Source: a virus
Taxonomy: Duplodnaviria > Heunggongvirae > Uroviricota > Caudoviricetes
IMG/VR virus record: IMGVR_UViG_2648501110_000004
Strand: one strand, 5' to 3'
DNA: 22,466 nucleotides
Shown here piece by piece: positions 20,169-20,396 of this stretch. Made by a program: the position numbers and the translations under genes. The notes below the pieces were generated by a model. The model made no database searches, was not told where the DNA came from, and was given only the letters and a program-made list of their open reading frames with translations. Positions within the stretch are counted from its first letter, which is position 1. Every line of letters begins with the position of its first letter.

Positions 20169-20396
20169 TTACTGGCAGCGTCTGAATTTATTCCCGTACC
20201 CGCCGTTATCCTTCGCCAGCCCCGCCAGAACTAACTGAGTCAGTATTAACTGGCACCGGGCTTCGCTTACTCCGGTAGTTCTCGTCATCATGCGTGGCGT
20301 TACCCACTTGTCAGCAGGTAAGAAATGAAGGACTGCGGCGGCGGTTTCTGTCATATCTTGCTGTTTTAGCATGTCTTTTTCCCTTCTGGTTAACAT
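20169..20396 (-). CDS. Small putative winged-helix DNA-binding protein (75 aa, or about 61 aa from MTETAAA)
   Basis: ORF in the cargo region. The pattern ...AVLHFLPADKWVTPRMMTRTTGVSEARCQLILTQLVLAGLAKDNGGYG is reminiscent of PapI/FaeA-type small winged-helix regulators. No strong Shine-Dalgarno was seen. Confidence 0.5.
   Translation of the reverse strand: MLTRREKDMLKQQDMTETAAAVLHFLPADKWVTPRMMTRTTGVSEARCQLILTQLVLAGLAKDNGGYGNKFRRCQ

Follow-up and report, generated by a model that had tools for sequence, protein, structure and literature searches.

We have found that an open reading frame (ORF) at positions 20169-20396 on the minus strand of IMG/VR record IMGVR_UViG_2648501110_000004 (Caudoviricetes; the whole analyzed stretch of 22,466 nucleotides (nt) is called the window here) is, judged by sequence comparison, a genuine and conserved phage gene under purifying selection. 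Its annotation is corrected: it is a real gene of 67 amino acids (aa) that starts at position 20372, and its product is neither a TrmB regulator nor a controller (C) protein. The layout in relatives marks it as the first cistron of a conserved methyltransferase module and not as variable cargo. The module further comprises a structured leader RNA, which is the most novel element found, and an adenine methyltransferase. We tentatively propose that the small protein is a dedicated yet dispensable accessory factor or modulator of this neighboring enzyme. Its family, phrog_331, is catalogued yet uncharacterized, and the module is a new variant of a known theme, in which a small partner or regulator accompanies a phage DNA-modification enzyme. 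No literature account of the small protein or of the leader RNA was found.

The first-pass annotation had described a 75-aa ORF between a 205/214-aa gene and the methyltransferase, and the ORF is present exactly there (Table 1). Its translation matches the phrog_331 hidden Markov model (HMM) with an E-value (E) of 3.1e-26 (92 bits, residues 9-74), and a collection of 5.8 billion proteins holds 89 homologous protein clusters, all from Enterobacterales. Absence from otherwise syntenic relatives had been named as the sign of a spurious ORF; in 36 of 38 related loci, drawn from many Enterobacterales genera, the frame remains open, down to 43% aa identity. The median of the pairwise ratios of nonsynonymous to synonymous change (dN/dS) is 0.26, and many pairs, at dS 0.2-0.4, have ratios of only 0.02-0.1; synonymous change is saturated, and variability is highest at third codon positions (0.42), followed by first (0.25) and second (0.19). 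Nine residues of helix 3, RCQLILTQL, do not vary within the lambdoid clade although synonymous differences occur in their codons, so that constraint acts on the protein. An untranslated leader with a fortuitous frame, conserved through its RNA alone, could draw on the strong conservation of the flanking non-coding sequence and on the participation of the first six codons in an RNA helix, but it is hardly credible in view of dN/dS values well under 1, the persistence of the frame together with its Shine-Dalgarno (SD) sequence and ATG, the confident structure prediction, and a PHROG family with members as distant as those of N15 and PY54.

The conserved start is the ATG at 20372 (MLKQQDMTE...), which is an ATG in all related loci except two and is the annotated start in phages Ayreon and mEp460_4F5. 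The first ATG of the mechanical ORF, at 20396, reads CACG in many relatives, and the frame above it is broken there by 1-nt indels. A start at the MTETAAA ATG (20354), giving about 61 aa, had been considered earlier and is superseded; likewise, the ribosome-binding site that had been missed is present as GAAGGG 8 nt upstream of ATG 20372, and most relatives have a purine-rich AAGG, GGAG or AGG in its place. Only one cysteine is invariant, C32 counted from ATG 20372 (C40 in the numbering of the 75-aa ORF), and a second cysteine is lacking from Providencia-type members. The isoelectric point (pI) of most phrog_331 members is acidic (4.4-5.6), and the allele in the window is a basic outlier at 9.6.

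The small protein is predicted to have a winged-helix fold, as the first reading of the window had supposed. An AlphaFold2 model built on a 25-sequence alignment reached a mean predicted local distance difference test (pLDDT) score of 87.5 and shows the canonical order H1-b-H2-H3-b-b, with helices at residues 7-17, 26-33 and 37-49 and strands at 53-55 and 63-65. Foldseek searches against the PDB and BFVD returned winged-helix domains only, at E of about 5e-4 to 5e-3, with no informative specific neighbor. Among these neighbors were Z-alpha, the DNA-binding domains of IclR and TrmBL2, ribosomal eS25, SelB, and the N-terminal dimerization domains of S-adenosylmethionine (SAM)-dependent O-methyltransferases; a sequence profile search of the PDB gave weak matches (E 0.04) to the winged-helix dimerization domain of O-methyltransferases as well. 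The best superposition was with Z-alpha of ADAR1 and poxvirus E3L (TM-score (TM) 0.83, root-mean-square deviation 1.1 A over 63 residues), a domain of the same minimal size, although the Asn and Tyr of helix 3 that, with a Trp in the wing, recognize the Z-form are Gln and Thr here, by inspection rather than by tool alignment. Because all Foldseek E-values lie near 5e-3, we regard the Z-alpha resemblance as generic fold similarity.

No Pfam family matched the small protein above its gathering threshold. The best scores were those of MarR_2 (14.0 bits, cut-off 27) and TrmB (12.2 bits, cut-off 25.6), with DnaD_N and EAP30 as further sub-threshold matches, and TrmB/MarR membership was rejected because these scores fall far under the thresholds; some phrog_331 homologues carry the NCBI label 'TrmB family transcriptional regulator'. 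The Pfam search gave no match to the Xre-type HTH_3 family, NCBIfam gave none at E<=1, and no PADLOC or anti-defense family matched. The likeness to PapI and FaeA that had been suggested at first holds at the level of the fold, in that PapI, FaeA and PefI are also stand-alone winged helices of about 70 aa, tied to adenine-methylation-dependent switches. PapI acts with Lrp at the Dam-methylated GATC sites of pap, in a chromosomal fimbrial context. The likeness does not extend to the family: the Pfam FaeA/PapI model gave no match at E<=1, PefI ranked only 31 in Foldseek (TM 0.61), and the gene stands in a phage late operon rather than in a fimbrial operon. An exhaustive profile search of 1.84 billion proteins yielded about 110 representatives at 50% identity, nearly all of 55-110 aa and stand-alone. 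The long matches in that search proved to be unrelated tandem winged-helix repeat proteins and not methyltransferase fusions. N15 gp51 and PY54 ORF59 match the phrog_331 HMM (E 6e-28 and 2e-26) and SfV orf47 is a further member; all three are uncharacterized.

The methyltransferase lies 150-180 nt downstream of the small gene in 35 of the 38 genome loci, and the three loci with no enzyme after the small gene are two decayed ones (L007, L038) and one that ends with its contig (L025). Among phage records, 57 carry the small gene and 60 the leader, and the two sets are almost identical. In the loci examined, the small gene was not seen beside anything other than this methyltransferase. Like the window, N15, PY54 and SfV have a gene of this family with the same neighbors, namely the leader and a 350-aa methyltransferase, with the lysis genes following. 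The same three elements occur in a Klebsiella N15-like plasmid prophage as well as in N15 and PY54, but unlike in the window the small gene of these phages lies upstream of a late promoter and terminator, which are placed between it and the leader, and is followed by palindromes; helix 3 of the N15 type reads EFIIEQM, as opposed to the lambdoid CQLILTQL. PY54 and the Klebsiella phages share leader segment 1 (seg1) with the lambdoid clade but not its helix 3. The linkage of small gene and enzyme holds in two phage lineages.

Two alleles of the small gene circulate in Escherichia coli, a basic 'AAAVLHFLPADKW' type and an acidic 'AKVVFNELSIEPAT' type. They are only about 50% identical, and they precede a leader and enzyme that are 99-100% identical among the viral contigs (L041-L120). 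The recombination junction between them coincides exactly with the leader start; in a few loci the 5' part of the small gene has been replaced. The methyltransferase scan of viral contigs returned E. coli loci of 99-100% identity only, and so bears on allele swapping and not on covariation.

The enzyme of the window is a beta-class methyltransferase that is 81% identical to that of phage 1720a-02. The 1720a-02 enzyme was called very similar to M.EcoGII by Murray et al. (PMC5778455), and M.EcoGII, a prophage enzyme of 349 aa, methylates adenine whatever the DNA context and in RNA as well, is silent in the lysogen, and is deleterious under constitutive expression (PMC5778455). The hallmarks of M.EcoGI and M.EcoGII are found in the window enzyme, which has an N-terminal DPPY, a C-terminal FxGxG and a length of about 349 aa, is prophage-borne and is close to the 1720a-02 enzyme; it is probably of the M.EcoGII type, non-specific and toxic. 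M.EcoGII also serves as a laboratory tool. The small gene and the spacer recur in phage 1720a-02. In the window, there is no SD sequence before the methyltransferase start.

The 150-nt spacer between the two genes is better conserved than the small gene itself. In a MAFFT alignment of 32 loci, hairpins P1, P2 and P3 were 84% paired, compared with 32-43% in controls with slid partners, and 13 pairs had changed on both sides, compared with 2-7 in the controls. A covariance model built from 30 sequences gave one match per locus, always abutting the methyltransferase start, including the unseeded N15, PY54 and OS31; on the alignment made with this model, which is fitted to it, 22 of 34 pairs showed double changes as against 3-10 in slid controls. 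G-U pairs assign the structure to the sense strand, and Rfam gave no match within the leader, even at E<=10. Segment 2 (seg2) has two mutually exclusive partners, seg1 (AUGGGC) and seg3, the latter pairing being P2. Seg1 and seg2 are 99% paired, with every change preserving the pairing through a wobble, and 4-5 pairs of P2 have compensatory changes. Seg3 also pairs with seg4, which abuts the start codon; this helix reads AAGCG/CGCUU in the E. coli type, GGGC/GCCC in Plesiomonas and GGAC/GUUC in Providencia, with double changes in four of five pairs. An alternative helix P0, formed by GGGC and GCUU beside the methyltransferase start, was superseded by the seg3:seg4 helix, which shows the compensatory changes. 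A GATC at 20020-20023, directly before the start (TGATC[C/T]ATG), is nearly invariant across genera; it is part of seg4 and pairs with an invariant GGUCA of seg3. The minimum free energy (MFE) structure of the leader in the window is the form with seg1:seg2 and seg3:seg4, in which the start region is buried (-56.9 kcal/mol, z -3.1). We read the leader, from these comparisons, as a putative translational switch that hides or exposes the SD-less start of the methyltransferase.

Among the explanations that we considered for the small protein, a role as accessory factor of the methyltransferase is the one that we put forward, with reserve. The transcript antiterminated by Q would yield the protein immediately before the enzyme. 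Helix 3, invariant and for the most part hydrophobic, would form the contact with the enzyme, and the protein would then adjust how active an otherwise indiscriminate methyltransferase is or which substrate it chooses; the leader between the two genes can hide or expose the start codon of the enzyme. We infer late, Q-dependent expression, as well as which partner is bound and what this does to the enzyme. A protein partner is favored over nucleic-acid binding because most members are acidic and the lambdoid clade has no conserved dyad operator, and also because the winged-helix dimerization domains of O-methyltransferases are the top sequence and Foldseek matches in the PDB. A dedicated role is favored because no other neighbor was found and because the neighborhood outlasts rearrangement in the N15-like phages. 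The working principle has a precedent in PNB-2 of Stx2a phages, a 143-aa winged-helix protein that forms a 1:1 complex with the MT-A70-type M.EcoPA8orf6770P and directs it to 16S rRNA (Gong, Chakraborty and Koudelka, NAR 2023; PMC10810198); PNB-2 and its methyltransferase co-occur in >80% of strains, and PNB-2 acts as an accessory subunit that sets substrate preference (PMC10810198). In both systems an intrinsic terminator is followed by a small winged-helix ORF, which in turn directly precedes the gene of an orphan adenine methyltransferase of a phage. They differ in that PNB-2 overlaps the start of its enzyme, which is a 208-aa MT-A70-type protein of the early, left arm, whereas here a structured 140-nt leader stands between the small gene and a 350-aa beta-class N6_N4 enzyme of the late operon. 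If the protein is a partner or modulator, phage methyltransferases that have a small winged-helix accessory subunit would gain a second and independent example besides PNB-2, and the protein could be a natural handle on methyltransferase specificity.

Several observations weigh against such a role. M.EcoGII is active alone in vitro (PMC5778455), and no fusion of the small domain to a methyltransferase occurs among the roughly 110 representatives. Flotzy, LLS and Serratia OS31 have a near-identical leader and enzyme without the small gene, and the small gene is truncated in at least three of 80 E. coli viral contigs; by this comparison it is dispensable. Alleles with a pI of 9.6 and of about 5.6 both precede identical enzymes, and since two such different alleles front the same enzyme, no co-evolution is visible outside helix 3. 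The likeness to PNB-2 is a working principle only because the proteins are not homologous (hhalign probability 7% with the PNB-2 orthologue of TL-2011c), and a regulated 150-nt leader separates the genes here, while PNB-2 and its enzyme are translationally coupled. The separate transcription units of the N15-like phages fit a trans-acting regulator better than a stoichiometric subunit.

Such a regulator might act through the leader, an option to which we give a limited share of belief: the protein would bind the leader, or ribosomes terminating on the small gene would disturb seg1:seg2, so that seg2 pairs with seg3 and the start opens. The pairings 2:3 and 3:4 are mutually exclusive and each covaries, the changes in 1:2 are wobble-only, the closed form is the MFE structure of the window, and the enzyme has no SD sequence of its own. 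What directly follows the small gene is always the leader or the promoter from which the leader is transcribed. In Providencia and Proteus its stop codon is 4-13 nt from seg1, close enough that a terminating ribosome would cover seg1, and in one locus (L033) the stop overlaps GUGAAAA; the E. coli-type stop, however, is about 22 nt and one hairpin away, and in N15-like phages the small gene is not on the transcript of the leader at all. SelB, eS25 and Z-alpha are RNA-binding winged helices among the structural neighbors, but acidic proteins rarely bind RNA, the leader is essentially unchanged in phages without the small gene, and PY54 and the Klebsiella phages share the lambdoid seg1 while helix 3 differs. 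It is in the same measure conceivable, yet improbable, that the gene is an independent, moron-like one whose link to the enzyme is positional only and whose target lies in the host or in a rival, for example as an inhibitor of N6-methyladenine-dependent restriction of hypermethylated phage DNA. A small, mostly acidic and dispensable protein encoded between hairpins, whose alleles swap as one cassette that ends precisely where the leader begins and which is missing from some phages that retain the enzyme, suits this idea, and N6-methyladenine-dependent winged-helix nucleases that cut M.EcoGII-modified DNA exist (PMC11037411). It does not explain why no neighbor other than the methyltransferase was seen apart from the decayed and truncated loci, nor why the neighborhood is retained in N15-like phages despite rearrangement, and no PADLOC or anti-defense family was matched.

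A classical sequence-specific DNA binder, which as a winged-helix dimer would occupy an operator close to the late promoter or to its own gene and thereby repress or activate the methyltransferase or late transcription, is distinctly unlikely. The fold, the weak MarR_2 and TrmB matches, the NCBI family names and the basic pI of the window allele agree with it. Its best argument comes from perfect or near-perfect palindromes of 18 base pairs between the winged-helix gene and the -35 element of the late promoter in the N15-like phages, GTGCGACCATGGTCGCAC in N15, TTGGGACCATGGTCCCAA in PY54 and two tandem copies in Klebsiella, whose half-sites change symmetrically along with helix 3. These are candidate operators of the N15-type protein or candidate hairpins at a transcript end, and their distance to the promoter differs (about -64 in N15, -51 in PY54). 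The Pfam matches amount to 12-14 bits against cut-offs of 25-27, most members are acidic, which is atypical for sequence-specific DNA binding, and the lambdoid clade lacks a conserved dyad though helix 3 is invariant there; the only conserved dyad (19992-20010) is LexA-like and common to phages with different helix 3. The lambdoid gene lies behind tR' and would hence be made only once late transcription is already on, and phages without the small gene are viable. A role as controller of the neighboring methyltransferase had been suggested at first pass; of that reading, we confirm the winged-helix fold and the tight linkage but not membership in the C-protein family. C proteins such as C.PvuII and C.AhdI are dimers of the Xre-type, five-helix helix-turn-helix (HTH) kind; they recognize C-box dyads in front of their own gene and set the timing of a restriction enzyme. 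Like them, the small protein is of the HTH class and encoded beside a methyltransferase; unlike them, it is a winged helix encoded downstream of a terminator within a late operon. No restriction endonuclease was found near the small gene, PADLOC finding the methyltransferase alone and the neighbors being a terminator, the methyltransferase and the holin, as in related loci, and no C-box-like dyad operator lies upstream of it, where two conserved boxes, CTTGCTG and AGAGTTA, form no dyad and a short stem between them shifts register among loci. Nor is the small gene an obligatory controller, because Flotzy, LLS and OS31 keep the leader and enzyme without it.

Small protein and leader together could, as a speculative option, form a previously undescribed two-layer control for M.EcoGII-type enzymes, in which a bistable RNA buries the start and the protein or its translation acts as trigger or modulator. 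The protein would then decide when the enzyme is made, or whether phage DNA or everything, including RNA, is the target. This arrangement recalls com-mom of phage Mu, where a late transcript carries a small-protein gene and, directly after it, a toxic DNA-modification gene whose start site is buried in RNA structure; Com is a zinc-finger (Cys4) RNA-binding protein and an obligatory activator. The position of the small gene, the late transcript and the structured start site are alike in both, but the protein here has a winged helix in place of a zinc finger and lacks a zinc site, is mostly acidic and can be dispensed with, and it is unrelated to Com in sequence. An M.EcoGII-type enzyme is nearly always accompanied by a covarying leader able to hide its start codon and, in most phages, also by a winged-helix protein, which is relevant to how phages silence such an enzyme in the lysogen and use it lytically.

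RNA pairing may also involve the small gene itself. The conserved upstream box UAUCUUGCUG pairs with CAGCAAGAUA (20354-20363) in 10 of 10 base pairs, which gives a long-range helix around the SD sequence and start codon (MFE -28.2, z -3.1), and two loci (L031, L032) retain the complementarity with other letters (CTTGATG and ATCAAG). This helix may explain the strong nucleotide conservation of the first six codons (MLKQQD). The CTTGCTG...AGAGTTA element is now read as RNA-level pairing with codons 4-7; a sigma-70 promoter there was rejected since the spacing and the -10 are unfit and the promoter scan is blank. RNAalifold gave no consensus structure upstream of the small gene. A CU-rich stretch upstream is also able to pair with the SD sequence of the small gene. 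At its other end, the stem of the hairpin around the stop codon is altered yet retained in relatives (GCCUUCA/UGGGGGC).

The genes in the 3' part of the window are all on the minus strand and constitute a lambdoid late region, in which the methyltransferase is followed by holin, lysozyme and Rz genes. The upstream edge of the module is a tR'-like intrinsic terminator, which has an annotated counterpart in Ayreon and SfV and compensatory stem changes in nearly all aligned relatives; at the downstream edge, SfV and Ayreon have an annotated terminator at the place equivalent to the hairpin at 18942-18958. From the first terminator on, relatives have a constant order of small gene, spacer of about 150 nt, methyltransferase, second terminator and holin. 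The interval between Q and the terminator varies, with two small ORFs in Ayreon, a 308-aa ORF on the other strand in mEp460_4F5, and nothing in SfV and Plesiomonas. The small ORF had been assigned to a cargo island; the terminator at 20495-20519 separates the two, with the variable cargo on its upstream side and the small gene on its downstream side.

An extended -10 element, TGtTATAAC, is present at 20567-20575 (minus strand) and is followed by a -10-like TATTAG/TTAAGA. Plesiomonas, N15, PY54 and Flotzy have a promoter, a -10-like element and a terminator in the same layout, directly after Q or before the leader. From this we infer a late promoter just upstream of the terminator. If it is placed correctly, the lysogen transcript here would be only a terminated RNA of about 60 nt, presumably resembling lambda 6S RNA or StxS, the small gene would be the first cistron read upon Q-dependent antitermination, and the 205-aa cargo gene would sit between Q and this promoter. 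Rfam searches of the whole window (gathering threshold) and of 19900-20700 (E<=10) gave only sub-threshold STnc130, isrJ, isrK and P9 near the terminator.

Table 1. Features of the methyltransferase module and its surroundings (window positions unless a locus is named)
Feature	Position	Strand	Remarks
DUF968/HNH gene	21731-22318	-	
Antiterminator Q	21342-21728	-	Pfam Phage_antitermQ, E 6e-47
205/214-aa gene	20649-21293	-	PHROG 8498 (E 6e-126); weak WYL-like N-terminus (Pfam E 0.01, PADLOC E 0.005)
Intrinsic terminator AAACCCGC-CACTGA-GCGGGTTT+T6	20495-20519	-	tR'-like; upstream edge of the conserved module
Upstream box UAUCUUGCUG	20426-20435	-	contains invariant CTTGCTG; perfect complement of codons 4-7 (20354-20363)
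Second invariant box (A/C)AGAGTTA	20407-20414	-	fixed 11 nt from CTTGCTG; only in loci carrying the small gene
SD-like GAAGGG	20381-20386	-	8 nt before ATG 20372
Winged-helix coding sequence (phrog_331), 67 aa	20169-20372	-	stop TAA 20169-20171; mechanical ORF runs on to non-conserved ATG 20396
Hairpin GCUGCCA-GUAA-UGGCGGU	20162-20179	-	stop codon in loop, then UUUCCU; by inspection
Methyltransferase leader RNA, about 140 nt	20019-20156	-	supported by covariation; P1 20111-20141, P3 20043-20076
Leader switch segments	seg1 20142-20147; seg2 20100-20109; seg3 20081-20093; seg4 20019-20031	-	
Beta-class N6-adenine (N6_N4) methyltransferase, 350 aa	18966-20018	-	DPPY 35-38; FxGxG (FMGSG) 310-314
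LexA-box-like dyad TACTGTAAAAATAAACAGT	19992-20010	-	within codons 3-9 of the methyltransferase
Terminator-like hairpin	18942-18958	-	just past the methyltransferase stop, before holin; downstream module edge
Palindrome, N15 (L039)	1538-1555		
Palindrome, PY54 (L040)	1546-1563		
Palindromes, Klebsiella (L126)	about 3236-3257 and 3281-3302		

The dyad TACTGTAAAAATAAACAGT fits the pattern CTGT-N8-ACAG, which is expected 0 times in the window in its strict form and occurs only here, and we take it to be close to the umuDC box. The Thr (ACT) and Ser (AGT) codons that make it up hardly vary between genera, which points to constraint at the nucleotide level; the dyad may be a roadblock released by the SOS response or a small RNA hairpin. 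The 205/214-aa gene of PHROG 8498 is truly variable cargo, and unrelated genes occupy the same place in relatives. A further example of cargo at this hotspot was seen in a metagenomic relative (L008, 708-3819), where two RVT_1 reverse-transcriptase genes lie on the opposite strand between the DUF968 and Q-like genes. The mechanical holin ORF (18554-18985, minus strand) has a 5' extension that contains the hairpin at 18942-18958, and its real start is probably an ATG that gives about 111 aa (MPHNPNTW...), as in SfV.

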